Origin: Lytechinus pictus
Lineage: Eukaryota
Direction: 5' to 3'
Assembly: GCF_037042905.1 (NCBI RefSeq)
Contig: NC_087245.1
Location: 6,140,001 to 6,204,000, forward strand
Length of the DNA: 64,000 nucleotides
Shown here piece by piece: positions 15,830 through 64,000 of this stretch; position 1 is the first letter of the stretch, and every line of letters starts with the position of its first letter. The position numbers were made by a program, and so were the translations under genes. The notes under the pieces were generated by a model. That model saw only the letters and a program-made list of their open reading frames with translations. It was not told where the DNA came from and ran no database searches.

Positions 15830-18800
15830 TTATTTGACGTTAAAAAAGTTAAAATGATCATACGCAAGATCAGATTTATCGGTTCTACCCATGTTATCAA
15901 TACATTCATATTCTGGACAAGCAACTGGACTCTCATTGGAGTTTGTCGACTCCAATGTGTGATACATGTTGCAAGATTGATGAATGTTAGATGATTTCTC
16001 ATTTTCATTGAATCCTTCAGTTTCAAGGATTCCCTTGGACACCTGGTCTGTATTCGGCCGACATCTTTCCTCAATATCACAGTATACTACGTCTTGAACA
16101 ATAGGGGCGATTTGAGGAGAAGAATCAGATTCAAAATTCATACCTTCTCCACAAAACCTAGGTTTATCTTGGTCTAGGTTGGTTTGACTTCTGGTTACGT
16201 CAGAGATATTTTCTGATGGTGACACATCTGAAGAACTTCGAGGTAGTTGGTTGCCACCCGGGTGTTGCCATGATTCAGTACTGGTACCTTCTTCAAGGTT
16301 ATTTTCATCTTTGTTTTTCGGGAAGCCATTATTCTGATAACGCTTGCTTTTTTTGGGCTTCACGTAAGGCGTAGACCCACCGGGTGCCTTCTTGGTTGTC
16401 TGTGTCTTCCCCCGAATAGAGGTAGGCGAATAGTGAATATTATTTGGCGTACAAGGCTTGTGGTACGTGTCAGAATTTCTCAGCTGATCAGTGCGTGTTA
16501 AGGTATGAGCCTTGCGTGGAGGTACAGGAGGTTTGATTAATCCACCCTTTGGACAGTCCGGGAGTGGTCGGTTCTTCATGGTGTGTGATTTAACACACGG
16601 TGGGATCTGAGTCAACTTGGTGGGTATGTCAGTGTAAAAATAATCTGTCCGTGATCCGCATCTGATGAGGTCTGTAGACGAATCTCGAGTGTCGTGATTA
16701 TCCTTGTTGACCGTAGCGCATTCAACCGCTGAGAGCATTGCTACAGAAGTATCTTCTCCTTTAACCCTACTCTGTTGTTCGTCTTGTCTGTTGGGTTCAG
16801 GTGGAATTAGGCTTACCTGTGATGAGTTGACATGTAGATGTTTTTCAGAAGTAGACATGTTGGAGCTGAGTGATATATCATCGCCATGACGAGTCGCTTG
16901 TCTTTTTCTTGGAAATGTCTTGGTAAATCCCAAACATATTTTTCGACAATTCTTTGACTTGCGGCATCTGTATCTGCATAATAGTTTTAAAAGAATGATT
17001 ATCATATTTTCCTTTTCGTCCTGTTTATCCTTCAAAAGTTACAACTTGCATCATTATATATTTATATAAAAAGTTTAAGATTTTGAGAATTGATTGGAAT
17101 TGAGCAATTATGTTTTTAAGAAAACATTAGGTTAAAATAGTGATCAAGTATGATGGTATAATTGAAAACGCAAGATATGATTCCAAAACTGTGTAAAGCC
17201 TTTTCTCCCCCAACGGTATTCCCATGCAGAAATAATTATTGTGCAATAGAGAAATCTTAGTTTGCAGTTAAGAAACAGGCAGATGTCATAATATAGACTG
17301 AACTGGTTCAGTTGTAGCAGACACAATAAATAATTTCATACCTTAGATACAAAATCACAGCAACGATTAATGAAAGAGAAACACTGATAGTAATCCGTAA
17401 CCGTAGCTGAAGAGGACCTTCCCTGTTGGGTTCTAAGAAGGAATAAAGTAAATATCAGATCAAATTTACTATTGCCTAATCTCGATATAATTCATAGAGT
17501 AAGAAAACTATTAATATCGATGGAAATGATAGGACCAATCAATTTGATTGTGATCTACATGTAGCTATATATACATGTTCATTCTATATACCTGAAACCA
17601 AAACGCTTTATGTTTCACTTTTGAAACAAATGCTCATAAAAAAATATGATATCATTTTAGTTTGAAAGCTGGAGTAAGAATAGAAAAGTTACTTTCTACT
17701 GACATGACTGAATGAACGGTATTGTCGAGAAGTATATGGTCCCCTATTACACAATCGACTAATAAAACAAACGATCTTTTAATATGAAAATACACCAAGG
17801 GTTGCAGCATAGTAGTTATTGTAATTTGCAGGGGAAAAATTAATTGAAATGTTTCTTCACAAGTAAAACGATGCTTAATCATCGGTGTCGTTATCATTTA
17901 TATTACGTCATGATAAACTCATATTTATGGTTTATTCTTTGTAGATTTCATAAATGTATTGTATTGTTATAACTCCTCTTCATTTATTTATGTAATCTTG
18001 AGTTGGACGTACTGTGAAACTACCGAATGAGACTGTCCGGTTTACCTTCTATTACTCATGTTACTAGTATAGTAACTAGTGCTGTTGATTTGTTTGAAAA
18101 GGGGATTAAAACACCGCCTCCTTACCACTTTCCGTTGTATGCGATTTTGACCTAATGTGAAAAGTGAAATACCGTCTTCACACGTACTGGCCACAAACAC
18201 CGCTACAGTACCGGAACTGTCCCGAGAATGTACCTGTGATATGTTTACTATAAATGTGGGGGTGTCGTGGTCTAGTGGTTATGACTCTCGTCTTTAAATT
18301 TGAATGACATGGGTTCGATTCCCCGCCTCAAGTATTTTTGGTTTATTAGAGTCGGTCACTTACGGGGTCACCAGCCTACACGTGTTTTGTTACGGAGGGT
18401 AAAAATCACCTGCTGCAGTGTGAATGGATACATGAAATCTATCCCGGGACTGTGCCGGGAATACAGTATTGGTAAGTTGTAACAATAATTCGTATAACTA
18501 AAAAAGGGGGGCTTTATATTTTCAAAATCATCTAAACCAAGCTATTTTGTTCCATCGCTATTTAGAACAAATGAACATGTAATATACCTGAAAGTTTTTT
18601 ATACACTGAAATAGTTTTTTGTCTTATGTATATCGTATGTTCTTTATGGTGATCATGTTTATACTGTATCGGGGCCCGTTTATCAATTGGTTAAATGTTG
18701 CGCCTGCGCTGCATGTATCGATTTTTATTTTAAATGGTACTATAATCAAATGATCTCAACTGAATATATCACGCACTTTGTGTTGGTTCTTGGGGTTCTG

Positions 18801-25953: not shown

Positions 25954-26078
25954 GAGGCGAGATAGCTCAGTCGGTAGAGCTGGTGACCTGGGTTCGATTC
26001 CCACTTGGTGTGCTAGTGCCCTTATGTGAGGATTGCATCTTCATTACCAGGTCCCTCGTAGAGGACCTTAATCCGTCG
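25954..26078 (+). mobile_element. tRNA-derived SINE
   Basis: TAGCTCAGTCGG A box and GGTTCGATTCC B box with a deleted anticodon arm, followed by a SINE-like body (GTGCCCTT...GAGGACCTTAA). Confidence 0.65.
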
Positions 26079-27188: not shown

Positions 27189-28397
27189 TCATAGTTTACA
27201 ACACTTCATATTACAAGCCCAACGATCAAAAAGCAGAAAATGTCGAAATTTTCGCCGAAAGTGCACATTAGTGGCGGCATATATGAACGGGTTAATAAAT
27301 GAAATGCACCACACGAGAGAATTTGTGATCTCCCAACTGAGCGTAGACACACAGCTGTCACCACAAATGGCATACATGATGGTGGTTACTTGGATAGGCA
27401 ACCAACAGATCAGGAAACCTCCTACAAGAATGGCAAGGACAACAGCGGCTTTACGATGTCTTGCCAATGTTCTTTCCTTTGTTTCCGAAATGTTGCCTAT
27501 TGCATTGTTACCTGATGTCCGTTCATTTGCCCTTCCTTCGATAGTGTCAGCGACTAGATTAGATGAGGTGGCGATCCGATCTTCCTCGTTTTGATTATTC
27601 AAAACATTTCCAGATTGAACGACATTTCTGTTCTCTGAAAAATGGGTGGATTGTTCCTGATTTCTAGAAATGGATAGAGTCAGTTGGTTTGTAAGGGGGC
27701 TCGGTCCCACAATACCCTTCGATCGCCGTTTGATATTGACATATACGGCTATGTTCATGATTAGCAAGGCTGTAAGCGGGATGAAGAACTCTAGAACATT
27801 CACGAGAACTGTTCCACCAAGGCTGTATGTAAATTCCATTTCACAGTTATAAGCATAATTTACAGAAGACATCCCAGTTACTGGACTCCACGCAAATGCA
27901 AGTACAGTATACCATGTAAAAACAACTATCCAGATGCCAAGTACAATTAGTGTCACCCTTTTATTGGTCTGATACGTCTGATACTGGACCCCCATTGTCA
28001 ATAGACAGTACCGGTCCCAACTAATGAGTACCATGGTCAAAACAGACACCACACTCACCGTATAGTCCGTAATCAACCAAACCTTGCAAAGGACTTCACC
28101 AAATGACCAGTAACCTTTGATGAGCCATGTAAGATTAATTGGCCACATGAAAGCTCCTACGATAAAATCAGTTACGGATAGATTTAAAATGAAGATATTA
28201 GCCACATTAGCACGGATACGATTACTTCGGATATAAGCAGCAATCACCATGGTATTCCCCAATACTGTCACGCATGCTATGATAGAAATAATCAAAGGAA
28301 CTGTTGCCAACCAAACATTTGAGTTAGGTTTTTCATAGCTGTATTCATAAGAATAAGAAGTGCTCTCGGATGAATAATCATTCATATTTCGTGCCAT
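27189..28397 (-). CDS. Intronless class A GPCR, histamine H3/H4 receptor-like (402 aa)
   Basis: Seven hydrophobic segments with GN, LSVTD, CKVWLITDY, DRY, CEMEF, EFFIP, CWLP and NPFIY motifs. First ATG in the ORF is at 28397. Confidence 0.92.
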   Translation of the reverse strand: MARNMNDYSSESTSYSYEYSYEKPNSNVWLATVPLIISIIACVTVLGNTMVIAAYIRSNRIRANVANIFILNLSVTDFIVGAFMWPINLTWLIKGYWSFGEVLCKVWLITDYTVSVVSVLTMVLISWDRYCLLTMGVQYQTYQTNKRVTLIVLGIWIVVFTWYTVLAFAWSPVTGMSSVNYAYNCEMEFTYSLGGTVLVNVLEFFIPLTALLIMNIAVYVNIKRRSKGIVGPSPLTNQLTLSISRNQEQSTHFSENRNVVQSGNVLNNQNEEDRIATSSNLVADTIEGRANERTSGNNAIGNISETKERTLARHRKAAVVLAILVGGFLICWLPIQVTTIMYAICGDSCVSTLSWEITNSLVWCISFINPFIYAATNVHFRRKFRHFLLFDRWACNMKCCKL

Positions 28398-30142
28398 GAT
28401 GGAAGTAATCCCCAAACCCAGATGCAGAAGAAAATATATGTCTTATGCAGTTGTTAAAGATATGTCTTCATAAATTATGCTTGTACAAAGTTTCGTTGAC
28501 GACTTGACGTTGGCAGAAGAAAGTCCACACGAAATATTCAGACAGAGTCGTTGACAGTCACAAAGACATGAAGTATGAACGAATACCATTGCTAGGTGAG
28601 AGGAAATGAAATATTAATGATGACCACTTTTACCACCAATTGCCACACCCGCTCTGACAGAACAAGCTGCACAAGTTCAATCGTATATCGCGCACCCAAT
28701 TCCATTCCTTATCACAACAAGGGTGTAGCCGTCTAATACCAATATTGCTAATTGGTACGTGCAGGGTTACATAAACTTAAATAGCCTTGACTGGTACCGA
28801 GATATGATTTGCACATTTCTTGATACCAACAAACATAACAAAAAATCAATAGTGTGGACACAGAGTTAGGTTGCGCCATGGTAAAGGAATACTCATAACT
28901 TGAATTTTAGGGGGAGGGGAAAGCCTTATGTGTCAATTACTGTTCGTTCACCAATGTCGTCGTGTGTATGCGTGTGAGGGAGCTTGTGGGAGTAGGGATG
29001 CGGATAAGCCCGGGGATGAGCCTCCATAGCATTATTGAAAGTCGCTGAAAATAAATACTTTGATGACATGTAATGATAAATGACATATGACAATAAGTCA
29101 ATTAGGTAAATATATTTCAAAGGATGAAAACTTGTTTAGTGACAGATCGTTAACTCATCATAATACTGCGTGCAAGCAGTCATATTTACTTTGATGACAA
29201 GAAAAGCCAGTTAAAACCCAGATTTAGATAAAGGTGAGTGGTATTATTGATCGAAAGTCAGAAGAAATGGATATATCTCATGACAGGACAGCTATATTTG
29301 ATTTGTTGATAATAATTTACATGATGTTAATAGGGAAATTTAGATGGTGTTATTATCAGTATATGCCATGAATCCTTGATTTCCATTGTCGAAAAACAGC
29401 TTCTCATTCGTAATATACTTGTGATATGGGATTAATAGATGATATTCATAGGAGCCATGTATCGATTTTTCAATCCGACATTCAAAATGTTGACTTTATC
29501 TTTCATATCTGGAAGTGTACACTACTGGACCAATTGGTATGAATGCATAGTTTTGTTTTATTTTGCTAGATATCATAGGCTTCGGAGCAGAGGATTATCC
29601 GTTGTTCATGGGGGGTGGGGACATCTAATGTTGTGCCCCCCCCCCCTAAACACAAAATATAATCCTGTGCTCCGCCACCCATGTCAGCAACCCTTAAACG
29701 AATGTTGATATGTGAAACTGTTGGATTTATTACTTCTTCACTGTTGACTAATACATTCTAAATTTAAATTCCTAGTTCCCTCCCACGAGATGTACCACCC
29801 ATTCAAATCAATCAAGTTAAACGAAAACTTAAATTTTAGCCTATTTTCATTGATTAAAGATTATAAACATTGCAATTGATATATCACAGCGTTTTCGTTC
29901 ATTTGTCTAGGATTTTGTCATTATTCATATGCTTTGTCTATTTTGCTATCTGTTATCGTAAAATCGAACAATCATCATGATCATGATTTATGATCTCTTC
30001 TCAACTAGTCCCTTCATTTACTTCTTTATATCACTTTGTTAAATTTTGCGGTGGCTGTCCAGACAAATCCTCAAAGAGTTTTATAAGGCAGCAAAATTTC
30101 TTATCTAAATCATTTAATATTTATTTGAATATTTTATTTATA

Positions 30143-35332: not shown

Positions 35333-35370
<38 letters not shown>

Positions 35371-35670
35371 CTCTGGGGAACCTTGATTTAAGCTACGCCT
35401 ACCATTGTTCTCTTCATCCATTTCTTTCACACAATATTTAAATATAAAAGAGTTGCCAAAGCTGTAGTACATGTATAACTTCACACATTTGTATACTTTC
35501 TCCCATACGTGTACTGTATCAAAGCAATAGCTTTGATCCAGCTGAGGCATGGCGGCTTGTCATTGTTCAAAACCCACCTTCACCCGACAAAGGAAATTAT
35601 AATTGGTATGGTGTCGAAAATCTGTCTATCTGACGGTCAATTGGATCGGGGTCGCCCTAGCCACTAACCC

Positions 35671-35742
35671 GTCTCTGTGGTCTAGTGGTTAAGGCACCGG
35701 CGTTCAAAGCTGGGGGCCCGGGTTCGATTCCCGGCAGAGACA
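35671..35742 (+). tRNA. tRNA-like gene with anticodon TCA (opal-suppressor-like, Glu/Asp-type body); repeat-borne, function unknown
   Basis: Acceptor GTCTCTG/CAGAGAC, D stem GTCT/AGGC, anticodon stem CCGGC/GCTGG with loop GTTCAAA, T arm CCGGG-TTCGATT-CCCGG, discriminator A, then TTTTTT. Confidence 0.6.
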
Positions 35743-36082
35743 TTTTTTCGGCATCACCAATTTTTCCAAAAAGGGTAGATAGCTCTGGGGAACCTTGATT
35801 TAAGCTACGCCTACCATTGTTCTCTTCATCCATTTCTTTCACACAATATTTAAATATAAAAGAGTTGCCAAAGCTGTAGTACATGTATAACTTCACACAT
35901 TTGTATACTTTCTCCCATACGTGTACTGTATCAAAGCAATAGCTTTGATCCAGCTGAGGCATGGCGGCTTGTCATTGTTCAAAACCCACCTTCACCCGAC
36001 AAAGGAAATTATAATTGGTATGGTGTCGAAAATCTGTCTATCTGACGGTCAATTGGATCGGGGTCGCCCTAGCCACTAACCC

Positions 36083-36154
36083 GTCTCTGTGGTCTAGTGG
36101 TTAAGGCACCGGCGTTCAAAGCTGGGGGCCCGGGTTCGATTCCCGGCAGATACA
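36083..36154 (+). tRNA. Second copy of the TCA-anticodon tRNA-like gene, with an acceptor-stem mismatch
   Basis: Identical to 35671-35742 except G>T at 36151. Confidence 0.5.
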
Positions 36155-36254
36155 TTTTTTCGGCATCACCAATTTTTCCAAAAAGGGTAGATAGCTCTGG
36201 GGAACCTTGATTTAAGCTACGCCTACCATTGTTCTCTTCATCCATTTCTTTCAC

Positions 36255-36327
<73 letters not shown>

Positions 36328-36479: not shown

Positions 36480-36620
36480 GCATGGCTATCACATACGCGC
36501 TTTGTACGTGCGCATGAGTTTGGGTTAAGCCCCGCCCACCCGTAAATAGTATTTGAAATATTTACGTCTGACGTCACGGCTCGGGGTACTATTCACTGTT
36601 GTGATGTCAGATGTCGGGAT
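36480..36620 (+). promoter_or_regulatory. Candidate promoter of the + strand NWD gene
   Basis: CpG-rich patch with a GC box CCCCGCCC (near 36530) and a CRE TGACGTCA (36569-36576), about 200 bp upstream of the ATG. Confidence 0.4.
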
Positions 36621-36763
36621 TCATGGCATTTTTGCCAATTTCGTGACATTGGTTGGAACTATCTTTGGTCACATGACGGGGTTTAGACCAATCATCTGTC
36701 TAGATTATTATTATGACGGATATGATCATGTATATTTGTAACAGGGTACCATCAGGTACAGAC

Positions 36764-37201
36764 ATGGCGGACGAGCCTACAATGTCAGCTAGATCAGCGT
36801 TCTTCCAGTCTCTGGTGAACGGTGAGACTGAAAACCTACCCGATCAAGAATCGAACACCGTGAGGATCTTCCTGAGTTCTACTTTTACAGGTACTGCAAT
36901 ATAAATCAAAAGACTTGACATATCTATGTCTTATATCATATTTCTTTAAAAAGAATAACACTTTTAGTGTCTTAACACCTCACCAAATGTTATATTGAGT
37001 CAGAGTAATTAAGGTCAGATGTTTTTTGTGTGTAAATCATGGACCTACTAGTAGGTAAAATTTACAGTGAACCAATTTCCGGGTATTCAAAGTCCAAGTT
37101 GTGCAATAACCCCTCTATACCTTCATTGTGCTCCCATGTACAATGACACATTCCTTTGAATTCCTTTGATAATACAATAACCCACTCCCTTCTCTCTCTC
37201 T

Positions 37202-37242
<41 letters not shown>

Positions 37243-38436
37243 TGTGTGTGTGTGTGGGTGTGTGCGTGCGTGTTTGTAAGCATTCCCCTCTTGGTGCTAT
37301 ATATGATTACTCTCTTTTTTTAATAACTCCAATTCAATAGGCCTGATTGTAGCTCAGTTTTCGGTCTCATTTCTTTTCAGGCTTTTACTATAATTCCGAT
37401 CATCATTTCCGAATAATTATTCATTTCAAATATTATGTTAAACATGGATAAAGTCTGGGTCAAAATTCAAGTAAAGGTCAAGTAAAAGAGATTATTATTT
37501 TACTGGTATATCGTCATACACATGTCGCTGAAAGAACTCTAAAGCTTGAAAGATCACTCGTGATAGACCCAACAGGTACACTATCCCATGCATGTCTTTA
37601 TTGATAGACCTATAATTAAAAGCTTTTGTGACAACAGGCAAAGAGTACTTAGGGGCTCTATATAGACTCACACAACTCATCGATTGCGGAAATAGATATA
37701 AAGCTATTTAAAAAAAACCCTGGTTCCATGACATTTGCTCCGGCAACAATTGTTCCGATGTGAAATCTCCACGTTAAGCATGTTAAGCCAAACATAAAAC
37801 CTAACCTCCGAAAATAAATAAACCCTAATCCTAAATCTTTACTTAATTCTGAACTAAAAAGTATATTACACTCCTAACTCTTACCCTATTCCCTTTAAGA
37901 TATCAAGACCGGAGCAAATGGTATCTCTATAATCAAGAGGAAAATCCTCTCCCTGAACCACAGCTAAAAATTTACTTGATTTAGAACCGTTACACATTTT
38001 CTGTATAGTATTCACTGTAAGTTTTTACATCATCATTATTGCACTAAAATTACAGGAATGTACCAGAGTAGAGAAAGATGTTTTTAAATGAAGAGATGTT
38101 GCAATCAGCATGCAAAACTGGAGAAGATAGTTAGACAAGCAAGAAAAAAGGAGGTGTCACTACTAAATAAAGGTTATTTGGGTCCCCAGAAATTCGACAA
38201 GCAATTAAAACAAATGAAAAAGGAGGGTTCACCACAAAATGTAAGTAAAAAATGGTTTCACTAAAGAAATATAGGTCTTTCTGGTTACATTTCTCCATTT
38301 TGCAACGCTTACCAGAACTCCAGAGGGTGCTGCCTATGAAAAATGTCACGTAGCTTGCCAGGGCCATGTTCATCGATAGAAAGATAAATAGACAGACATA
38401 TTTGTATATATACAGATGGAAAGATAGATAGTTAGT

Positions 38437-38489
<53 letters not shown>

Positions 38490-41400
38490 GGATGGATGGA
38501 TGGATGGATGGATCAATTTTAACAGAATAAGGTAGATATAAGAGGAAAAACTACAACATTGAAATATTTTTCATCGACATAAAATCTTTCTCGGAATGCG
38601 TTATATTCCGGTAACGCATTCCATTTTAAGTACTGCCGAGACTTCATAAGATAGGATGTTATTACCGTTTGTCTTGCAGATATGAAAGAAGAAAGAAACA
38701 AATTGATGCAGGAAGTATTTCCAGAGCTTCGACGGTATTGTCAACAGAGGCAGCTTGAGTTTGAAGTGGTTGATATGAGATGGGGTGTACGAGATAGTGC
38801 CACAGCAGATCACCTGACATCGTTCCTATGCCTTAATGAAATTGACAGGTGTAAACGTATGTCTCAGGGACCTTACTTCGTGGTAAGATTGGTTATTGGC
38901 TCATGTGCTAGGCTAACCCAGGACTATGGACAAACAGATCTATTGCAGTTTTTAATTTCACACAATGATACAATCACTTGAGAAAATTTCAAGGTTTTAA
39001 TACAACTGATTTTCGAACATAATTCATAGAAGTCAATGAAATATTCAATACTATATATCAAATCACGCAAAATAAGGCAAATATTATGTTCTTGGTCTAA
39101 GTTAATCAATTCAGCTTTAAAAAGCGCGGAATTACTTTGTCTTTGGTAATCAATTATTCACTTTGATAAACTTAACTCATCATACATCCACTATGCAACG
39201 AAGGTGGTATAGGACCTATGATAACCGATTACATTGACAAAACAAGGAGGCAAAGCGCTACCGCTTCAAATCCCCTTTCTCCATTTCTCTCTTCTCGAAG
39301 GTTTACCTTGATATAACCATAACCATTTCCTTAAAATTGAGCATATTCATGAAAGTTCTGGAGAAATATCGTTAATTCTCAAAAACTTGTCGAATTTGCA
39401 CAGGGTTTTCTTGGAAACAAGTATGGCTACCGACCATTGAAATCAACCATTCAATCACGGATCTTTAAGAAGCTCATGACAATCATATCACAAAACGATC
39501 GCATAACCCAAGACGACATCAATCTTCTGAAGATGTGGTATGCAGAGGATGCAAACGCCATTCCTCCTGTATACGCACTTCGACCTATCACAGCACTTCT
39601 TCCACATTTCCACAACAAGAGTGAACCAGACAAAGAGGGGCAGGCAAGGAGAACCTGGTGGGAAATGTATACCAAGATGAGGAATGTCTTTGACGAATTT
39701 GCCAGATCGTCAGCAGCGAGGGAAGTTTACAGCGAACAGGAAATCCATTCCTTCGTCATGTCAGGTAATTTCAGGTTCTAAAAAATACACGTATTGATGT
39801 TGGGGTTTTGAAATGTGGTATATGTACTTTGAAACAATTCACATACCTTTAGTTACCATGTCCTACTTGATATGTCTATGAAGACCTCATGATCCATCTC
39901 CTAAGCATACCTTTATAGACCAGTTTAGAATGTCATGAACAAGTTTTCTCAAGATATTACGTAAACAAGTATGACATAGCAGGATGCAGAAATTACATAG
40001 ACCAGGTGACTAAAGTAGCACATAAACGAACATCATTTAAGGGGGTATTTGTTGCATTTTTACTTTGAAAATTAAAATCTATATTTTATAGTTCTAAAAA
40101 GAAATATAAAATAGAAATACTCCAAATACTCGTTTTGCCCATTTGATAGTGGGACCGGCAGTCACTAGCTGTGTAGCGCCATATCGATAGGCTGAAAATT
40201 CTATGGTTTGAAGAGATAAATAACAATGAGACAAATAAAACACTGACAATTTTATAAAAATCGGACAAGGAATAACAAAGTGTGACAATATAAAACTTTG
40301 TATTATTTTGGTGAAGCAGTTCTATGTATGTCTAAAAAAAATTAAATGAGCAAATCGATGATGTCATATCCCACTTGCTATTTTTTATTTTATTATATGA
40401 AAAGATGTTTATTCAATTTATTTCCTCCAATGCATATTCATTGCTGTAACTTACTTTAATATAAGGGAGACATATCATATACACATGTATGAATATATCA
40501 AATGATTATGATTTCATAAGTTAAACAGCAGTCACTATTTAATGCATTGCTTTCCAGTGGATCTAATAAAACAAAATTTAAAAGAATAACCAAAAATTCA
40601 ATTTGATGTTTATCTCATTGATTATGAAACCATCATTCAATATGAGTACAAATTACCTTCTTCTGAAGCATAAAAAATTATTCTATTCTGGTCTACTCCT
40701 TTCGTGTTAATGCCCGTAATCCCTCTTTGAATTAAAATGTCTACTTCATTTTTCCATTTGTGATTATGTTCAGTTACGGAAGAGGAAATAAGACATGCCC
40801 TGAAAGACAACACAAACATTCAAGATACATGTTTGTTCTTTATACGAGATTTTCAGAATCTTGTTCCTTCTAGAGAAAATAGAGGTTTAGTTGCAGACTA
40901 TGCTGACGTGGAAATGATAAAGTGAGTATCGCTCATCTACATTTTGTATTAAGTCATTCATTCTTCTAAAGTACCAATGTGTACAACATATTCTGGTTTA
41001 GAGGGGGAGTCCAAGGACAAATTTAAATCAACGGAATAATTCTAAACAACATGAATAAGTGATTACTTTTTCCATGTGTATTTGAATACTTGCTTAAATC
41101 TGCTAGAGTTTGAATATAAGTTTCTCCTTTATTTGGGATGGCTTTCTGGTCTAAAACTTCAATCCTTTCTCGAGAACGTAGGGAAAGTTTTGTCCTGGAT
41201 AAAATTCATTCAATTTTTTTTTTTCGTCTTCAAGGGATGGAGGTGATGTCCAATTCAACAGGTTTCCTCAAGATAAACTCTCCACATTGAAGGCAAAATA
41301 CATTCCAAGTGTAGTCCCATCTGATTCAGTCATGAAGTACAATATACCCTGGACCGAGAAGGGTTTAAACCCAACAGATTGTAAGGAGCATATAGAGTAT

Positions 41401-44400
41401 CTGAACGACATGTGCAAAGTCTTTGAAAAGCGGATGAAGGATATGATAGAGAAGAGCCTGCAGGATCGAAAGATGTTTACTAGAGATTTACTCCAGATAA
41501 ACATGTACAAAGAACTTCTACACCATTCATCCTTCTGTAAAATCAAATACAGGTTGGTATAGCCCCGGCCCTTGCTCTTTAGCTGAAAGCATATGTAACT
41601 AATTAAACATAGAAATTCTGAGTGCATATAATAATTCAATCAGAAAGTATTTGGTATTGAATTAAGACTGTGTTCAGAAATGTTGCAACATATTATGTAA
41701 GGGTACATGTTGGTATGGGTAAAAGTAATTGGGTATTTACACAAATTCAACATTTATATATTAATATCTGGGACAGGCCTAGCTTGACCGACCAGACAGG
41801 GTCCGAAAAAAATGAAACATGAATCGGGGCTCGAACTTCAGACCTCTCAACAAGTTTGCAACTTCCACGCGTAGCTAGCTCGTGTCTGGAGAATGACATG
41901 CAAATGATGGGCTGATTTTCATTACCTTTTATATACTGCAGCACATTTCAAGGACGAGAGGATTTGATGGGTTCAATCCAGGCTTGCCTTACAGCTAATC
42001 TTGGAAGGCCATTGGTTATTCATGGTGTGTCCGGATCAGGAAAGACCTCTATCATGGCAATGGTAGCCAAACACAGCAAAGAATTCTTTGGAAGAAATTG
42101 CGTGACAGTTCTACGATTCCTTGGAACGTCAGTACAGACATCTTCAATACACATGACCCTTCAAAGCATATGTAGACAGGTAGCTGACTCATCTGAAATT
42201 AAACGTTTAACAAGCTTTTTTTTCATTTCCGTTACTCATTGAAAGCTACTTAAAGCATTGGAGTCATTCAACCCACGAAGTATTCACATTTGCTTCTATA
42301 ATATTGATAATTATGTCCGAAGTATTTCTTGTATTCTTAAGGGCATGGATTTCATAACCATATAATTATTTTTCATTTACTTCAATCGCACTGAAAACCT
42401 CTCTGAACCACCAGAACAAAGTCTTTTCATAAATAGCATGGGAAAGATCCAGTGTATAACTCACACAATCTTATACAAAGAATAAAATATTCGAATCCAT
42501 CCAGAGCAACTGTAATTAGTGTGATAGTTGATTAATATACCCAGTGGATATTTCATGGATTCTTCTTATTTATTTTATCTAGATCTGCATTGCATATGGA
42601 GTGGAGCAACCTGCAGATGATCACCTGGATGATTTCTCAGAAACAGTTCAGACATTCAACAACTTGATCAGAACAGTTCCATCCAAAGAAAGGTCTCTTC
42701 TATTACTCCTAGATAGCATTGACCAACTGGCTTCCAATAATAATGCTCATATGATGAACTGGTTACCCAAACACCTCCATGAAAACACCCATATTGTTGT
42801 CTCCATGCTTGAAGAAGAGCACCAATGCCTTAAAAATATCAAAGTGGCTTTGAAGGATAACAGATGCTACATTAAAATGGACCCTTTGGAAAAAGATAAT
42901 GGTCTTGCAATCATGAAGAGTTTGCTAAAGAGCAGAGACAGAACACTGACGCGTGAGCAAGTCGACATTGTGACAGATGCCTTCATAAAATGTCCTCAGC
43001 CCTTGTTCTTGAAACTGTTGTTTGAAGAATTTGTGAGCTGGCCATCTTTCAAGAAGATAGAAGAGATAAATCTTCCTGGTAATATTTCTGAAGCTATCTT
43101 GTCCTTGTTCAAAGATCTAGAAGATCGACATGGAAGACTCTTTGTAGCCCATGCTCTTGGTTATCTGACAGCAGGAAAGAGTGGTCTGACAGAAGCAGAG
43201 ATAGAAGACGTCCTTTCGTGTGATGACAAAGTCCTCAATGATGTCTATCAGTACTGGGATCCTCCTGATGAAGACATTGTTCGAATTCCTCCATCTCTGT
43301 GGAAGAGGTTACGTCTGGACATCGACGAATTCATTACTGAACGTCAAGCAGGTGGAAAGACTGTGCTTGCTTGGTATCACCGACAGTTCATTGAAACTGC
43401 TCAGAAAATGTATCTTGGCGACCCTTATACCAATGTAGTTAGGCACCAGCTACTTGCTGACATGTTTAGGGGAGAGTATAGTGATGGTGCTATCAAACCA
43501 ATTACACTACATGGTCGTAAGAAGGAATTCAGAAAGGCTGATCGCCAAGCAGCAGCTCAACCACTAATGTTCGGAGACGATGTTTTCAATTTGCGCAAGT
43601 TGCAAGAACTTCCATATCACCTCATGCAATGTACACCTGTAGATTGCTTTCCAAATGGTTTGATTAAGTACGTGATGTACAACTATGAATGGATTTTAGC
43701 CAAGTTGAGAGCTTTAAGTTTCATAGAGCTTGTAGATGACTTCATGCAGTATGATGACGAGAGCGCTCTTCTGATAGATGCACTTTACCTCTCGGGGAGC
43801 AATATCAAGGAGGACCCGTTTGCATTGGCAGGCCAGTTAATTGGTCGATTGACTGACTTCGTGGATGTATATCCAAATATTGGAAGACTTCTTCAAGAAG
43901 CCAAGTCCTGGATGCAAACAACTACTCTGTCTCTCATAATTCCCAGAGGTGCATGTCTTATCCCTCCTGGAGGGCAGTTAAAAGCATCTCTTGCAGGTCA
44001 TCCAAATAGAGTCGAGGCCATTCGATATGCATGTTCTGTAGGCATGCTTGTAACCATCTGTAACGATAATGATGGACAACCAATGGCAAATGTATGGGAT
44101 GAACCAAAGATAGAACTCATTCACACCCTCGAGATAAAAGCTAAGCAAAAAGCTTCAGGTAAATTGACACTCGTTCTGAGCCCTGATGAGAAACATGTTG
44201 TCTTTGGTTGTCAAGTGCTTGGTGTGTTCGCACTTTCTAGTGGGTCACTGGTTTGCAAGTTGGAAACTGGAAAGAACCATGCTATCAGCTCATGCACGAT
44301 ACAAGAAGATGGGTGTCATGCTGTAGCTGGTGCAGAAAAGGGCACAAATGTGTACTTGTGGGATTTGAGAAATGGGCAACTCCTGATGAGCTTGAATCAT

Positions 44401-47400
44401 CCTGCAGCTGTTCATTTTACCTTTTTCGAAGGCAATTCTGAGATTCTGTCCGTCTGTCAAGATGGCCGTATCAGACGATGGTCAATCGATACCAAGGACT
44501 GCATTCACTGTTTTGAGGTCCATAGGGCTGGTGATATCAGGGAAGCAACTCGCTCAGCAATGAATAAGACCATGATCACGGGAAGTTACGATGGAACTAT
44601 CAAGATATCAAGCTATCTCCATGAAGAACACAATTCAAGCATAACACTCAAAGCACACAAGAAAGCCATATCATGCCTCTTGATTTTGTCAGAAAACCGA
44701 CTTGCTTCTGGTTCTGGAGACTCTGTTGTTTACATCTGGGATATGGTGACAGGAATGGCGATATTGTCCTTCAAAGGTTAGTCGTAATTTTGTAGTCAAT
44801 GGTCTCTCAGAAAGCTGTAAACCTTTAGATTTCTGCGTTTTGAGATAAATCTTCTGTTACAGTAGGTACATTGAAATAAATATTATGTTAAAGTAGGTGC
44901 ATCTACTTTATAACATGCAAAATGTTATATGGAAATTAAATTATTATTAAGGAGTACGTTTAGAGGTTTTCCTCAAGACTGGAGATATATCCTCTTTATT
45001 TTATACATGTAGGTCATGTTGGGATGATCACATCTCTATGGTTTGGTGAAGCTGACCAGAGTGTTGCTGACTCACGAGAGATTCTGGTAACTGGATCAAA
45101 GGATGATTGCCTGAATGTGTGGAGTCTGAACACTGACCACACTGAGAATTCTCTCATCACCTCCTTAGAAGGACATTCATCATGGATTACAGATGTAACA
45201 GGATCAAGCAGTCAGAAAATATACTCTGCATCTAATGATAAAAGTGCTAAAGTATGGGACTACAAACGAAATACGGTGAGCATGGCCTGGAAGTTGATTA
45301 GCTTTACACTAAAAAAAGAAAATATCACATCTAATCTCAGGCATTGTCGATCATTTCTCTTTCACATCACAGGTGATAAAAAGGGAGAGGCACAAAGAGC
45401 ATGCATTTGGACTTGTCTTTGGACCTGACAAATCAACAGTCATTACGAGTGGACAAGAAGGTACTGTCAAGTTCTCAAGATTCTCCGACTGCCAGGTGAT
45501 CCGCCAAGAATCTGGGTTTGCATACACTCTCTTGATAAGCAGTGATGGCAAGAAGCTCATAGGTGGAATGGTCGATGAAGGCGTGGTCCGTGTATGGGAT
45601 GTTGTTCAATCAGAGGACAGGAATAGTTCATTCGATCTTGAGGGTCATGACAAGGATGTTCTGTGTATTATCCAAGGTCATGATGACGAGATCATCACAG
45701 GGTCACTGGATACAACGGTTAAACTGTGGTCACTGGAATCAAAGTCATGTCTGAAAACACTCGAAGGTAAGTATGTGTGTCTAAAAATGTAAGGGAAATC
45801 CAACCTTAGTTACAAATAATCTGCATGAAAGAAGATATGTGAAAGCATATCAGTGAAAGGATTTTTTAAAGGTATGCCTATTTGAAAACTGAGGGCACAA
45901 AGGCTTTGTAAGTCTAAATTTGGGTGCAGATTGTGTCATGTGGTTGGGACAACTCCCCCATTTGTCGTGTCCTAATTCATCAGCAATATGTGGTTTTCTC
46001 CTAAGCACCTTTCCACCGGGGCGGTTGTACAACATAAACAGATTCTTGTTATATTCCCTTATAAAAGAAAAAATATTAATACCATAACTTTGAAAAATAT
46101 GACCATTTGAAATTTTTATTGAAACGAATTTTGAGTTTTGTTAAAATGGACGATTTTAAAAATTAATCAGAAGTCAATTTGAGGCATCTATTTTACTGAC
46201 ATAAACCTGCTTCCCTGGATATAAATCGAACAGAAGATTAATGTTGTAGTTTAATGAGTTTAATTAAGGATTTAATTACTTTTATTTCTTGACAATTTCC
46301 AAAATTTCCTAAATATGATTTATGTTTCATTTCTTAATTAAGGGCACAAAGGTTCTGTTGAAATTGTGAAAGTGACGAAGCAAGAAGCAGACACTCTGAT
46401 CCTATCAGCAGATAGTAAGGGTATGCTGAATATCTGGGAATATAAGACAGGAGAATGTCTGCTATCAGCTAAAGAGCACAGGACATCAATACGATGTCTT
46501 TCTGTATCCGATGATGGTAAGAAGTGTTTCTATTTGTTCATACTCTGGTATTATATATTTTTCCTTTCATGTCATTAGAGCAGTCTCTAACATTGCTCTG
46601 TTTGTTTAGGGGTTTGGGGGGTGTTACTAAATTTACTTCTGAGGTACATTTAATACTTGTTTGTATTGTGACAAAACATTATTAGCAGTACCCTAGAAAG
46701 AAAAAAATGACACAACAAATATTATGCAAATAATACATATTGAGAGCATTATACATATTTACATGTGCAAGGTACCTTTAGAATATTTCTAAGTAGTCCA
46801 GATTGGAATTTGATGTGTAAAGGCTCTCTTTCCCAAAGCTAACATTCAGTAGAGGTATCCGGACTCCAAGTCCTTAAAGGACAAGTCCACCCCAACTACA
46901 AGTTGATTTGAATAAAAAGAAAAAATCCAACAAGCATAACACTGAGCATTTCATCAAAATTGGATGTAAAATAAGAAAGTAATAACATTTGAAGTTTTGT
47001 TTAATTTCACAAAACAGTTGTACATCCTGGGACCTGTTGCATAAAAGTTACTACTATAGTAACTTTGCGATCCAATGGTAACTAACATGGTAACATGCCC
47101 CAACAGCCAATCAGAATCAAGGATTTTATGAAAGTTACCACTAGACGGCGAAGTTATCATAATGGTATTTATTATGCAATGGGGCTTTGGACGGTATGCA
47201 AATGAGGGGACTTATGACATCACTAACTTTTTTTTTCTTTATATTTCATAATAACTTTATGAAATATGGAACATTATAATTTTATACTCATTGTTCTAAC
47301 ATAGCTGAGGAAATTAGTACTGCTTGAAATTTAACAAGTATTTGTAATTTTCTAATGCTTGAGAAAAGTGATGTTTATTATATGTTTAAAAATAAAGTGG

Positions 47401-48836
47401 TTTGGATCCCTATTATCTGACAAATCATCCTTATCTCAAACCATGAATAGTCAATAGACCTGGGAGTGTTTCACAAAGATTTAAGTATGACTTAGAGTCG
47501 CACTTAAATGCATAATTGCGTGCTTCAAAGGCATTACCGCATTGGTCAGATCATGCGAAGAGGACACACACTACTGCGTATTGATCAAGAAGATTGCGCG
47601 TTGCATTTCAGATATGTGTCGGCATTTAAGTGCGATTTAAGTCATACTTAAATATTTGTGAAACAAAGGTCATTGGTACCAGTCATAGGCAAATTTTCAT
47701 GTCAGCTGAAATATATGACTGGTCACATGGTTAAAAATCAACCAATTATCAGGATATTTATCAACATTTTATGATATATGCTACCTCTAAAGAAACAAAC
47801 TACATGTTACAATATAATTTCCCTTTAATAAAACTTTAAATATATCTGCATGTACGATTGTCTTCCTAGCTAAGCCCCATATTCAATTTCACAAGAGTGG
47901 AGAAAAGTCAGAGCTTTATAGCTTTATAATGAGTTGTATATGTATTTTAAAGAGTATACTTGGATATCATCTCCGCAGGTAAATATGCGGTCACAGGAGG
48001 AAATGACAAGAAGGCCCTACTCTGGTCATTGGATTCGTCTGACGGTTCTTTTGGTAAGGTGCTACAACGTTTGGCAGTACATACATCAGAGGTAACGTGT
48101 GCTATCTTCATGCACGATGGTAGAAGGATTATCACAGCTTCACATTCAGGAAGTAAACAGCTCTATATGTGGAATATATCAGGAGATGAAACAGACCAAC
48201 AGTAAGTAATCTGTCTTTCTTTCTTAAACTACAAACTTCATCCTTTATTCTTCTTCCTTCGAGTGTCCAACCCTACATTCACTTTTTTCATTTAATCAAA
48301 TTCCCCAAACAAATATATATCAATGTCAAATATGGGCGTTTCTTAATCTAGAGGGGAAATGAAAAAAAAGATATTCATGGTGTCGTGTGTACAGAGTGGG
48401 AGTTGGCCACTTTAAATTGGTGCCTAGTGATTAGCTATAATTATAGAGCTCAACTTCAGTGACATTAAAGTCAATTACAATGCCAAGTGGTCTCAACTTT
48501 CAGTTAACAATGACAGATCTTTGTTTTACTCTCGATCTTGTTAGTTTCATCTATGGACATTCCCACGCAATCCTAGATATGCATATATCAGCAAACGATT
48601 GTTACTTGGTTACAGCATCCCGTGACTGCACCGTCAAGGCTTGGCATCTTCCATCCCGACAGTTGATGGCGTCCTTTGACTGCAAATCAGCGATAAAGCA
48701 CATAGATGTGGTTTACATCAATGAAGATCACTACCGTATAGCAGGAGAAAACAAAACTGGAACTATTCTCCTACTGGATCTGTTTCTCCCAAAAGCAGAC
48801 AGGTCTGAAGCCTACTATCAATCACAAGTAATGTAA
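36764..48836 (+). CDS. NACHT and WD40-repeat protein, NWD1/NWD2-like (DUF4062-like N-terminus, NACHT/STAND ATPase, WD40 repeats), 12 exons, 1644 aa
   Basis: Exons 36764-36890, 38680-38882, 39404-39764, 40774-40921, 41235-41552, 41942-42179, 42583-44776, 45013-45275, 45373-45766, 46343-46516, 47979-48201 and 48545-48836. All are GT-AG and phase compatible (4935 nt). Motifs VRIFLSSTFTDM..ERN, VVDMRWGV, LGNKYGYRP, Walker A GVSGSGKT, Walker B LLLLDSIDQL, WYHRQF, RKLQELPYHL and GH...WD repeats. Confidence 0.93.
37203..37275. repeat. (TA)n/(TG)n microsatellite
   Basis: Direct inspection. Confidence 0.85.
38420..38513. repeat. (GATA)n/(GGAT)n microsatellite
   Basis: Direct inspection. Confidence 0.9.
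46878..47290. mobile_element. Kolobok-like MITE relic with a nested small MITE (about 47028-47185); related inverted relic at about 57290-57826
   Basis: TTAA-AGGACAAGTCCACCCCAAC start. The nested element has TTGCATAAAAG ... TTATGCAA ends. Confidence 0.45.
47459..47665. mobile_element. MITE
   Basis: TGTTTCACAAAGATTTAAGTATGACTTA ... TAAGTCATACTTAAATATTTGTGAAACA inverted ends. Confidence 0.7.
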
Positions 48837-48945
48837 TGAAATATGTTCATAGACCACCTTATATTAATATTTGTATACATATATAATATCTAAAAGCATA
48901 TTATGCTTTTAGATTTCTGTGATACATTACAACAAATTTAATTAA

Positions 48946-49527
48946 AGGGATGGTCCGGGCTGAAAGTATTTATAGCTTAATAAATAGAGTAGAATTCACT
49001 GAGCAAAATGCTGAAAATTTCATCGAAATTGGATAACAAATAACAAAGTTATTGAATTTTAAAGTTTAACAATATTTTGTGAAAACAGTCGTCATGAATA
49101 TTCAGTAGGTGGACTGATGATGTCACATCTCCACTTGTTCTTTTGTATTTTATTATATGAAATTAGGTATATTCAAATTTTTTCCTCCAAGAACTAGAAA
49201 AATTGGATTGACAACTGATTTAGTGCATTAGACATTTATTGCTGCAACTTATTTCATTATAAGGGAGACATATTATTCACACAAGTATGAAATAATGAAA
49301 AAATTATGATTTTATGTAATAACATAAGAAAACGGAAAGTGGAGATGTGACGTCATCAGCCCACCTAATGAATATTCATGACGACTGTTTTCACAAAATA
49401 TTGCTAAACTTTAAACTTCAATAACTTTATTATTTGTTAGCCGATTTTGATGAAATTTTCGGCATTTTGCTCAGTGAATTCTACTCTATGTATTAAGATA
49501 AAAATATTTTCAGCCCGGACCACCCCT
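48946..49527. mobile_element. Kolobok-like MITE with TTAA TSD
   Basis: TTAA|AGGGATGGTCCGGGCTGAAA ... TTTCAGCCCGGACCACCCCT|TTAA with long inverted arms. Confidence 0.85.
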
Positions 49528-52031
49528 TTAATGATTGATGGAACAAGAACATCTTGATCATCTATTCATATACTGTATTCCTGTAAATTAAATGCAAACA
49601 ATAAAGGGTTACTGGATCCAAATTTAGAAAACATGTTATCAACAACAATCGCAAGAAGTCTGTGTCAAAAATAATCAAATGATGTGGCTTTAGTAGAGGA
49701 AGTGAACAGAGAAGTTGTGAAACAGGACTCTTATGCATGTAAACACTCCAGGATTGAAAAGAGAGATGGTTGATAAAATGGATAGTGAACTGATGACAAT
49801 CTTGTTCATGGGTCGTCCTAAGATAAAATGGTGCATGATAATTTCATCTTTCTCTTCAGTCAGAAGTCAGAGTATGAATGTTAGAAGCTTTAATGCACCA
49901 CTTTTTAAAAAAATCCAGAATCAATGTGTTCAAACATGAAGCTTAATTAAAACTTACACCCGCTCTGATACCAAAATGGTGGCAAAATTTGAATGAAAAA
50001 AAGTGCCATTACATCCAGGGTTTTCTACATATTACATAACTGAATAGGATTCAAAGTGGAGGTCTTATGAAACCAGCTCTTTTCAGCTGAAAAGCAGCTT
50101 TAATTACATATTTATGAAAAGCAATTACATCTTAGCTTTTTTTATCTATGATATAAGGATATGAGTACAATATACATAGGTAGTTAGAAACAAAAAGATT
50201 TTTTTTTTCAAAAACCTTGCATATGACAAAAAGTATTAGCCTGAATAAAATTCAGTTGTAGCAAGGTAATATTTAGTCATACAAATATTATTGTTCGTTG
50301 TAAACATGAATTATTAATATACTTGTAGTATACCTTTCTTGATGTCACTCATATATGGGTCAAGTCTAGAAAATAAAAGAAATACAACAGATATCAATTT
50401 CACTTCTGAATTTAATTCATTTCACAAAATATTAGAATAGATTTGGTTTACAATATCACAATGAAGGTAACACATCATTTGATCTTCTGACTCTTGCTCC
50501 TCCTCTAATATCTCTGGAGATATTAGGTGAGGGTTGTTATAGGGTTTGCAGTTTAGAATTATGTGAGGATTGGGATTAAGGTTAAGGTCAAGTAGGTTAA
50601 TGTTTGGCTTAATGTGTGAATTATCAATGGGAGGTATTGTCATAAAAGCAAATGTCACAGAACCCACAATGAAACCATGAAAGTCATTAATCATCTAGTC
50701 AATTTATTATTCTCAATTGATATTCAATATGATGATGTGATAACACTAGGATTAAATTGATGATTTATAAATAAAAGAATGGAATGTAATATGACATCAA
50801 ACACCTACACCAATCATTGTTTTTTATTCAGTCAAAACCACAAATGAATATTTTGAATACAAATACAATTGTTCACACAATATCATAGTATATTGAAATA
50901 AGAAAATACATGATAAATAACTACAAATATCAATTTGTCTGTTATCTATGTCTACATATATACAGATTATAATCCTGATTGATTAATTCTAAGCATCAAT
51001 AAAAATGTGTTGTGACAAAGATGATGATGAATTTGTATAGCAAAGCCACTGTATATTTCTACTGCACTTTGCTTACACTAAACACTTAAAATGATGATGT
51101 ACTTAATTGCTTCCCAACAAAGATGTGTCTTCAATAATGATTTGAATAATAATTAAGTATTCTGGACTCAATTTTGTTTAGATGATTTGTTATATCTGCA
51201 TGATATATTCATACCTGAGTAATTTGTTTCTTTGTTTTGTTTTGTTCATGCATGTTATATTACTATAATTATACCAGTGGGAAAAAAAATCTTTGTAATC
51301 ATGTTTATGAAGACAAAATAAAATATCTTGTACATGTAAAATAATTAGCTTTAGAACTGATTATGTACAAAGTGTCATGTTTGAGTGTGACCCTTTCCTT
51401 TGCATCTTTGTAATTTTTCAACATTAAAACACAACTGCATTACAGAAATTATCTTTTACTGCATTTGTGGCTGCTTTGTACTGCACCCCTGTCCTTTTCA
51501 TTTTCATAATTACATGTACATGTATTATTATAATACATGAGATTTACAAGAATTTACAATTTCAAGAAGATTTTAGCCTTTGACTCATTGTAAAGCCAAA
51601 TTTGTAGTTGTTTGTTCATTCTGACATATGTATAAAAATATACATATTCCCTGTTAAATTATATATTTTCCAAGATACAAGGCAAAAATTTACAAGAAAA
51701 GACTTAATCTTATCTAATTTTGACAGAGCTTGATATTATCACTACTATTGCACAAGAAATATTTTCCATTAAGTTCATGAAAGGAAATGTTCAAAATATA
51801 TAAGAGAATAAAAAATCTATGAAATATTTAAGTAGAAAACTACATGTACTTGAAAGCAAGGTAGGTAAATGATTGCAAGGTTTTTAAAGATCACATTATA
51901 TCACAATAAAATCCATTATAGAATGCAAGTGATGAAATCCAACTTGTGATTATAGAGATATTTATGAGTGCACTTGTTCAATTTCTATAAATCTACAATA
52001 CATTCATACATACTGTGAATAAACATTAGTA

Positions 52032-62800: not shown

Positions 62801-64000
62801 GTGTCATATAAACCAAAAAAATGTTCCTTCATTCGTGCAATGGACAGAATACTTCATTCGGAGAAAGATGAAATGAAATGATCCATTCAACTCAGCTACG
62901 CCTTGTTGAATGAATCATTTCATCTTTTACCTAATGAAGGATTCTGTCCATTGCACTCATAAACATTCATTATTTGTATATTAATTGCCCATGATGGATT
63001 TAAACAATATGTGTAATTGGATTACATTCCTAGTCTGCATGCACTTTTTTTCCAAACAACAAACCAAAGGGCTAAAAAATGGAACAAAATTAATTTTATT
63101 TTCTATGTAAATTTGGGACATATCTTCTTTTTGATCAGCTAACTTTATATGTTGCACATCATTGCAGAAGCTCTTCACTTCATCTATTTTCAGTTTCTGT
63201 ACTTTGTTCATTGAAGTTCATTAAGACTATTACCGTTTCCTTGGTATAGACCCACATCTTAGCGCTTTTATCATTCGATGCAGAGTAAAGCACTCTCATC
63301 TTTGTTCCAGTAACATCTGAGATCCATGAAGAATGTCCTTCCAGTGTAGTGATGAGAGGACACTTATCATCCTTTGGCGCCAGGTCCCAAACCTTCAGAA
63401 AGTCATCTTTAGAACATGATACTAAGATAGACTTGGACCCTGTTTCCTTGGGGTCTGCTGGCCAGTGCCAAAGGCAAGTAACCATACCATCATGACCTGT
63501 AAACATACAAAATGATTCACACAAGATCAAAATCAAATGCCAAACAGAATTGTTTTGTTGAAGACAGAACATACATGTGTAAATACGAACGGTTCATATA
63601 AGTGTGCATTGTTCATACAACTTTGGTGTATAATTTATTCCCATTCCATTTTCTACACATTTATGCATTTGTTGGTTAAAATTTAGTTCTGTCATGTCAT
63701 AATGAATGTGTTTGAGTTTTGATAGCAAGTGTCCCATAAGATTTAATTTTACTCTGAGAAATCTACAATGAAGTAAATGTAGCTAAAATATTATTAACAT
63801 ACCAAATAATAATCTGAATATTAAACCCCTACCTTGACATTTCAACAAAGCTGAGCCCTCAGTCATATTCCAGACACGAACAGTAAAATCAGCTGACCCA
63901 GAAGCAAGTAAATCATCTGATAACACTAAGAGACAAGTAACAGCTTTCCTGTGACCTTCCAGGACCATATCAGGGCCACTTGGTTTGCATGCATATCTAG
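56738..64000 (-). CDS. Second NWD1/NWD2-like paralogue, 3' WD40 portion (5' part outside the window), ending in a CaaX-like motif
   Basis: Exons >64000-63833, 63496-63234, 62325-61929, 60525-60352, 59824-59614, 58119-57850 and 56924-56738. Intron positions and phases equal those of the + strand gene (263- and 174-nt exons identical in length). The last exon encodes ...SGGKKSRSAICMLY*. Confidence 0.9.
58685..59440. mobile_element. MITE (GGGGCCATTTCATAAAGCTG ends) interrupted by a second copy of the Kolobok-like MITE at 58829-59409
   Basis: Outer ends ATAAAGCTGTTCGTAAGTTAA ... TTAACTAACGAACAGCTTTAT. Inner element TTAA|AGGGATGGTCTGGGCTGAAA ... CAGCCCGGACCATCCCT|TTAA. Confidence 0.8.
60089..60222. 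mobile_element. Short MITE
   Basis: CAGGGGCCCATAACACAAAGGTTA ... TAACCTTTGTGTTACGGGACCCTG. Confidence 0.75.
60665..61547. mobile_element. Helentron/HINE-like non-autonomous element with internal tandem TGACCT-rich repeats
   Basis: Subterminal inverted repeat GTCTCGCCTGCAT (60688-60700) / ATGCAGGCGAGAC (61530-61542), terminal hairpin at 61517-61542, A-run flanks and about 160-190-bp internal repeats. Confidence 0.6.

Follow-up and report, generated by a model that had tools for sequence, protein, structure and literature searches.

The window analyzed, a 64,000-nucleotide stretch of Lytechinus pictus DNA (contig NC_087245.1 of assembly GCF_037042905.1, positions 6,140,001 to 6,204,000 of the forward strand), includes a short tandem array of a 412-bp unit located between two (TA)n tracts. 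The coordinates of its components are collected in Table 1. An NWD1-like protein of L. pictus is matched with 100% identity by a 732-codon exon in the vicinity, the start codon of which, at 36764, is 440 bp to the right of the element. Motifs that we take to be CCAAT, GC-box and CRE-like elements are present at about 36530-36700, near both the element and the NWD1-like start. The NWD1-like gene occupies 36764-48833 (+ strand) and is accompanied by a tail-to-tail paralog at about 57846-63968 (- strand), which is 41-60% identical in the matched exons. Several other structures were observed in the window. An 878-bp direct duplication (1-878 and 1832-2709, 99.7% identity, period 1831) is a recent tandem or assembly duplication, and a 117-bp tandem array with 16 copies and a 352-bp higher-order period was found at 54924-56798, with a diverged outlier at 53945-54145. 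A 590-bp MITE-like repeat is present in two copies that are 94% identical (48942-49531 and 58825-59413) and also has inverted matches, and a diverged tandem with units of about 163-194 bp is located at 60792-61485. Inspection of the translations by eye identified broken LINE-like endonuclease and reverse transcriptase fragments at 10209-12279 (+) and an intronless open reading frame with about 400 codons and a resemblance to amine-type GPCRs at 27189-28442 (-).

Table 1. Features of the tandem array, numbered from the first nucleotide of the window.
Feature	Coordinates	Strand	Basis
Left (TA)15 tract, putative insertion target	35340-35369		TRF, sequence
Unit 1, 412 bp	35367-35778	+	TRF, period comparison
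71-bp terminal repeat, first copy, pseudo-LTR-like, with junction microhomologies	35367-35437	+	Period comparison
Structured domain 1, branched hairpins, without hammerhead core	35370-35580	+	Predicted fold
Antisense arm, copy 1, degenerate reverse complement of 35681-35767	35591-35669	+	Alignment, predicted fold
tRNA-like gene, copy 1, A73	35671-35742	+	ARAGORN, Rfam, fold
T6 Pol III terminator-like run	35743-35748	+	Sequence
Unit 2	35779-36190	+	Period comparison
Antisense arm, copy 2, identical to copy 1	36003-36081	+	Period comparison
tRNA-like gene, copy 2; T36151 breaks pair 3:70	36083-36154	+	Rfam, period comparison
Partial third unit, last copy of the terminal repeat	36191-36261	+	Period comparison
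Right (TA)33 tract	36259-36324		TRF, sequence

Tandem Repeats Finder (TRF) detected a 412-bp period with 2.2 copies at 35367-36270. An exact comparison showed that identity at this period runs from 35367 to 36261 (895 bp, or 2.17 units) with a single mismatch, G35739/T36151; unit 2 is thus identical to unit 1 at 411 of 412 positions. Short microhomologies are found at the junctions with the flanking TA tracts (ATA at the left one, ATAT at the right one) and, counting them in, the same 71 bp open and close the array. The original prediction, made before any database search, had described about 2.2 nearly identical copies bounded on both sides by (TA)n with short ATA microhomology, and an element that starts and finishes with the same ~70 bp. 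All of these points held. Further copies of the unit were not found elsewhere within the 64-kb window. The locus departs from the majority of the family at 35610, 35642 and 35878, and the alleles are common to both units. Since both units carry the same minority alleles, the tandem would be derived from one template. The change at T36151 may be private to this locus or an error. An assembly artefact is an unlikely explanation for the family, since tandem joints occurred in three of the four sequencing runs that were aligned (see below).

Each of the two full units includes a tRNA-like gene that was called by both ARAGORN and the Rfam model RF00005. The Rfam scores were 60.9 bits (E 9.8e-11) for copy 1 and 55.4 bits for copy 2, and these two genes were the only matches at gathering score in the 64 kb. 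Copy 1 folds as a 72-nt cloverleaf with stems of 7, 4, 5 and 5 bp and a 4-nt variable loop, in which all 21 stem pairs are standard, two of them being G:U. The claim that all four stems are paired in each full unit was therefore correct for copy 1 but not for copy 2, in which T36151 turns the acceptor pair C3:G70 into a mismatch. The other components were located where expected: an A box (35678-35688) and a B box (35721-35731), both read from the sequence, a TCA anticodon (35704-35706) centred in a 7-nt loop, and a T6 run directly after A73. On its + strand, the unit has no stretches of at least four T residues other than this run and a T5 (35761-35765). The sequence 3' of the tRNA has the T6 and neither a poly(A) nor a LINE-like tail. 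The anticodon loop opens with a G at position 32 (G35702), which had been flagged as atypical. To our knowledge, G32 is almost absent from eukaryotic tRNAs as well as from those of bacteria. For the latter, the available part of PMC2018626 describes it as 'almost absent in bacteria'.

ARAGORN labelled the gene 'SeC', and this label derives from the anticodon. Eukaryotic tRNA-Sec has a 9/4 acceptor/T fold, a long variable arm and G73. The element shares with it the UCA anticodon and differs in all the other traits, with 7/5 acceptor/T stems, a 4-nt variable loop and A73; in addition, its best match in the Rfam clan was the generic RF00005. Therefore, tRNA-Sec was ruled out, as had been anticipated. 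The closest true tRNA retrieved was a tRNA-Ile(GAT) gene (82.6% over 69 nt) at 992-1066 of a metagenome locus, L019, which has a second, partial T-arm match upstream, at about 752-785. Two SINE-like tRNA heads located elsewhere in the window, at 18260-18339 and 25956-26002, were called by neither ARAGORN nor Rfam. The first of them has a D-arm motif in common with the element and a T5 (18335-18339) just past its 3' end, and the contrast that had been drawn with SINE heads, said to have no immediate terminator, is consequently weaker than proposed.

The unit or part of it was present in 20 of the 24 sequencing runs listed. Four of them (DNA runs X2 and X7, and X9 and X19) were aligned to a permuted unit (35500-35911), and the copy counts, the flanks and the search for a partner were based on the contigs of these runs and the 64-kb window. 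Matches to the unit were found in 9,450 contigs of X2 and 3,965 contigs of X7. The summed depth at the anticodon was about 0.70-0.74 million, compared with medians of 33 and 50 for eight long diverged pieces per run. From these depths the copy number would be between about 450 and 23,000, figures that serve as loose bounds only. Tandem joints at which the sequence goes back 412 positions were found in 13 contigs of X2, seven of X7 and one of X9, and six of the 15 joints listed connect opposite strands at different breakpoints. Among the 18 loose ends listed (with 833 more besides), about seven were joined to TA. Within this group, the ends behind 35839, 35843, 35858 and 35907 (two runs) enter TA-rich or (TA)n sequences, another, behind 35899, enters (CA)n(TA), and a further end, before 35605, emerges from (TA)n. 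These results agree with the idea of a dispersed unit residing in (TA)n and with a layout longer than one unit of the kind found in Penelope-like elements and retrozymes, both of which had been put forward. A step in depth at about 35780 was considered as a possible fixed end and rejected, because depth follows the structure of the contigs. Spread across species is not claimed: runs of organisms B-E included 0.61-0.74 of the unit's words, and they conflict with runs of the same samples, four of which (organisms C and E) had 0.00. Searches with tRNA patterns produced no matches in viral contigs, prokaryote genomes or metagenomes. A looser pattern matched 23 metagenome loci, 22 SINE-like heads and the tRNA-Ile(GAT), and none of these loci matched the unit outside the tRNA. 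A viral or prokaryotic origin was thus unsupported by these searches.

Sequence variation was unevenly distributed along the unit. Among the rows listed for X2 and X7, variation reached 3% at none of the 72 tRNA sites, compared with 24 of the 340 sites outside the tRNA, 14 of which fell in the 80 bp that precede it on the upstream side. Besides the listed changes, at least 3% was reached by up to three others in X2 and one in X7; even if all of these were in the tRNA, the contrast between the tRNA and this upstream arm would persist (p = 0.010 and 0.003, with sites that are non-independent). On the other hand, only five of the 182 sites in domain 1 varied, a number that does not differ significantly from 0 of 72 (p = 0.33), and the notion that the tRNA is uniquely conserved was rejected. 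Because domain 1 is conserved almost to the same degree, the conservation does not point to decoding in particular. At the anticodon, the change A36>T accounted for 0.22% of the depth in X2, 0.35% in X7 and 8.9% in X9, a run of low depth. Changes at T34 did not reach 3% in X2 or X7, nor did those at C35 in X7, and A>C changes of at least 3% were absent from all four runs. Free variation of the anticodon, one of the outcomes that had been named as fatal to the proposal, was not observed in the young family. One diverged piece in X7, in which eight of 39 letters differ, has G32 together with a TCC anticodon; it was compared by eye and is a single contig.

The region immediately upstream of the tRNA is a feature that the sequence-only reading had missed and that is new here. 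The stretch at 35591-35669 corresponds, in degenerate form, to the reverse complement of the segment that runs from tRNA nucleotide 11 through the trailer (35681-35767). The alignment score between this antisense arm and the tRNA was 66, while the maximum among 2,000 shuffled sequences was 58.5. The whole unit is predicted to fold with a z-score of -7.4, and none of 100 shuffled sequences was equally stable. Domain 2, which comprises the arm and the tRNA, had z-scores of -7.95 on the + strand and -3.15 on the - strand; those of domain 1 were -3.95 and -4.23, respectively, and one control flank had -3.41 on the - strand. On the + strand, the prediction is of a long rod with the anticodon hairpin looped out. 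The pairing probabilities of the acceptor, D and T stems in a unit-length RNA are predicted to be near zero, whereas that of the anticodon hairpin is 0.997, and forcing the cloverleaf would cost 20 kcal/mol (-123 versus -143). A short transcript is predicted to behave differently. With a 10-nt leader and an end at T6, the acceptor, D, anticodon and T stems are paired with probabilities of 0.78, 0.15, 0.89 and 0.76, respectively, i.e., a cloverleaf with a weak D stem. When the leader has 16 nt or more, acceptor and D pairing fall to 0.01 or below and the anticodon hairpin is kept (0.85-1.0). These predictions suggest that, in the unit-length RNA, the arm masks the cloverleaf and leaves the anticodon hairpin accessible. 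The mean predicted cost of the 16 common variants of the arm is 0.79 kcal/mol, compared with 2.38 for type-matched random changes (p = 0.0025, in a test that treats subfamilies as independent despite their shared ancestry), and pairing is lost in eight of the 13 common variants that fall at paired sites. The exact hammerhead core CUGANGA is absent from both strands of the unit. Matches with one mismatch were found three times on the + strand and once on the - strand, and just one of these precedes a GAAA, but it lacks a closing stem II. None of the 32 Rfam matches up to E 10 was a ribozyme.

Penelope-like elements are known to form partial tandems and inverted truncated copies and to target (TA)n, and Naiads among them have no hammerheads (PMC8557442; here and below, statements credited to this source, PMC10886601, PMC7229834, PMC2018626 and 10.64898/2026.07.22.740005 refer to the available part of each). 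Chlamys includes non-autonomous head-to-tail families, and two sea-cucumber Hydra families favour (TA)n (PMC8557442 and its supplement). Retrozymes have been proposed as passengers of Penelope-like elements (10.64898/2026.07.22.740005; PMC7229834). The array under study has a partial tandem with a pseudo-LTR, and the family shows inverted joints and variable ends, structural traits of a non-autonomous Penelope-like derivative. We propose, with a probability of roughly 0.6, that this very abundant non-coding 412-bp repeat is copied into (TA)n via RNA by the machinery of an autonomous Penelope-like element. The element is likely a retrozyme-like passenger of Penelope-like elements that has a tRNA and lacks a hammerhead; our literature search found no description of it, and it may be catalogued in Repbase or Dfam. 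The long frames of the 64-kb window, read by eye, did not include a Penelope-like open reading frame, and reading through TGA in the long frames, also by eye, did not reveal a reverse transcriptase or GIY-YIG-like protein. The autonomous partner with in-frame TGA codons that the original prediction had suggested looking for was not found in those frames. One supplement of PMC8557442, in its available part, did not include an urchin family.

The proposed pathway would proceed as follows. An autonomous Penelope-like element would supply the reverse transcriptase and the endonuclease, and the template would be a multimeric or circular form of the unit-length RNA. Reverse transcription at a nick in (TA)n could run past one unit and generate an insert of 2.17 copies with terminal redundancy. 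In the long RNA, the antisense arm would pair with the D, T and acceptor strands of the tRNA; with its cloverleaf masked, this RNA would not be a substrate for RNase P/Z and could survive as a template. The T6 and T5 runs would stop Pol III, so the unit-length RNA would need another source, and the Pol III product would be only a short pre-tRNA ending at T6. The tRNA cassette may act as a promoter or open-chromatin module for the element, as proposed for SINEs and Helenus. Conservation of the whole cloverleaf, however, exceeds what a bare promoter needs and counts against the promoter-module view; Helenus keeps only the boxes. The UCA anticodon may have originated when C36 of an older TCC form changed to A, and may have risen with the youngest subfamilies, and G32 likely prevents good decoding by it.

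The same arrangement might have been generated at the DNA level. A tRNA-derived satellite or SINE-like repeat could have spread without a Penelope-like element, by rolling-circle copying of extrachromosomal circles, recombination between TA tracts or a Helitron-type partner, and the arm would then be a decaying old inverted duplication. Such routes would suit the 411/412 identity of the tandem units and the short microhomologies at both junctions, which are compatible with recombination, as well as the failure to find an autonomous partner in the window frames read by eye and the many arm variants that break pairing. We nevertheless consider this explanation unlikely, since the inverted joints at many breakpoints and the varied ends in (TA)n match published Penelope-like insertions (PMC8557442), domain 2 folds with a strand bias of the kind that an RNA stage would be expected to leave, and the tRNA is followed by T6 and not by a poly(A) or LINE-like tail.

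The second alternative accepts an RNA stage and assigns a different function to the tRNA, which would replace the hammerhead: RNase P/Z or an anticodon-loop nuclease would cut the multimers and a host ligase would circularize the monomers. The unit has the size of a retrozyme and no hammerhead core, its nearly invariant anticodon hairpin is predicted to be exposed, and RtcB is known to circularize retrozyme monomers (PMC7229834). Yet the acceptor, D and T stems are predicted to be practically unpaired in the unit-length RNA, in which a cloverleaf is energetically expensive, and this mode of processing appears quite improbable.

A more striking possibility is that the element encodes a charged opal suppressor that reads UGA for a Penelope-like partner interrupted by TGA codons. 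The intact cloverleaf, A and B boxes and T6, the near-invariance of the anticodon in X2 and X7, and the existence of Naiads with in-frame UGA codons in spiders and clams (PMC8557442) are in its favor. A charged tRNA that decoded UGA would mean hundreds to thousands of suppressor genes in an animal, which would be very surprising; that many active genes would be expected to be toxic. Moreover, UGA-bearing Naiads rely on SECIS elements and tRNA-Sec and not on a suppressor (PMC8557442), position 32 is a G instead of a pyrimidine, the diverged X7 copy has a TCC anticodon, and the conservation is not specific to the tRNA. There is also a precedent in two rust fungi, where all the Sup-CTA tRNAs predicted (109 of 109 and 245 of 245) came from Helenus, an element whose stop anticodons show no sign of function and that was judged not likely to code for functional RNA (PMC10886601). 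Given the diverged TCC copy and the suppressor anticodons borne by Helenus repeats, the UCA anticodon is probably incidental, and we regard a suppressor as very unlikely. The original prediction that the unit spreads a potential opal suppressor thus fared poorly in view of G32, the TCC copy, the Helenus precedent, the failure to find a TGA-containing partner in the window frames and the predicted masking, and nothing shows that such a suppressor works. In X19, the sole true RNA library aligned, the unit was represented by three contigs with depths of 2.9-4.4 that included the flanks and did not correspond to a mature tRNA. These contigs were rejected as proof of expression since they may be DNA, and so were those of X9, the RNA nature of which was only guessed.

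An elaboration of the suppressor idea, in which a two-state RNA gene would yield a short Pol III product that becomes a charged UGA-reading tRNA and a long transposition RNA that hides it behind the antisense arm, with readthrough of stop codons provided to a TGA-interrupted Penelope-like partner and the two mutually dependent through a private genetic code, would be extremely unlikely. Equally unlikely is the mobilization, by an LTR retrotransposon, of a Helenus-like tandem TRIM (LTR-internal-LTR-internal-LTR) with the 71-bp repeat as LTR, a reading that would suit the repeat-body-repeat-body-repeat layout, the purine-rich stretch (35768-35780) preceding the repeat and a right end readable as ...CA, but not the left end without a TG start, the absence of a PBS-like TGG after the repeat on both strands, the lack of a discernible TSD, the variation of the ends among copies or the location of the tRNA in the body, whereas Helenus has its tRNA-like part in the repeat (PMC10886601).

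The passenger of Penelope-like elements proposed here resembles several known systems without coinciding with any of them. SINE2 elements have internal A and B boxes too, and the D-arm motif of the element heads the SINE-like repeats of 22 of the 23 metagenome loci, heads that ARAGORN did not call as tRNAs. The element differs from SINE2 in its internal tRNA, the immediate T6, the permuted tandem unit and the lack of a LINE-like tail, and does not qualify as one. Helenus/TRIMp3 is non-autonomous too: this retroelement has captured a tRNA-like Pol III cassette, which raises the predicted tRNA counts and carries suppressor anticodons (PMC10886601). However, Helenus has LTRs, a PBS, a PPT, TSDs of 4-6 bp and a tRNA-like part located in the LTR, in which mainly the boxes are conserved (PMC10886601). 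The element lacks the TG...CA LTRs, PBS, TSD and LTR-borne tRNA of that group; it has variable ends in (TA)n and keeps the full cloverleaf.

The partial tandems that create pseudo-LTRs, the truncated copies in inverted orientation and, probably, the (TA)n target are shared with EN+ Penelope-like elements (Naiad, Neptune and Hydra) and with non-autonomous Chlamys families, MRC1 among them, and the absence of a hammerhead is shared with Naiad (PMC8557442). The element has no open reading frame for a reverse transcriptase or endonuclease, in contrast with the EN+ elements. A tRNA module is not described in the available part of PMC8557442, where the sole mention of tRNA is tRNA-Sec. Animal non-LTR retrozymes are similarly short, non-coding tandem units of comparable size with strongly folded RNA; they are dispersed as monomers and multimers and have been proposed to be Penelope-like passengers (PMC7229834; 10.64898/2026.07.22.740005). 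The word 'tRNA' does not occur in the available part of the 2026 retrozyme preprint (10.64898/2026.07.22.740005). The 412-bp repeat is likewise a short, multi-copy, non-coding tandem unit, but in place of the type I hammerhead present in each retrozyme unit it has an intact tRNA gene, a terminator and an antisense arm. The arm offers a possible answer to the question of how a mobile RNA that holds a perfect tRNA can escape cleavage by RNase P/Z. The family would also account for spurious 'tRNA-Sec/suppressor' calls, which are likely in large excess in this urchin genome. Known passengers with small-RNA genes are SINEs for LINEs, and Cassandra and Helenus for LTR elements. If our proposal is correct, a passenger of Penelope-like elements with a tRNA gene would fill the third slot, and retrozyme-like spread would be possible without a ribozyme.
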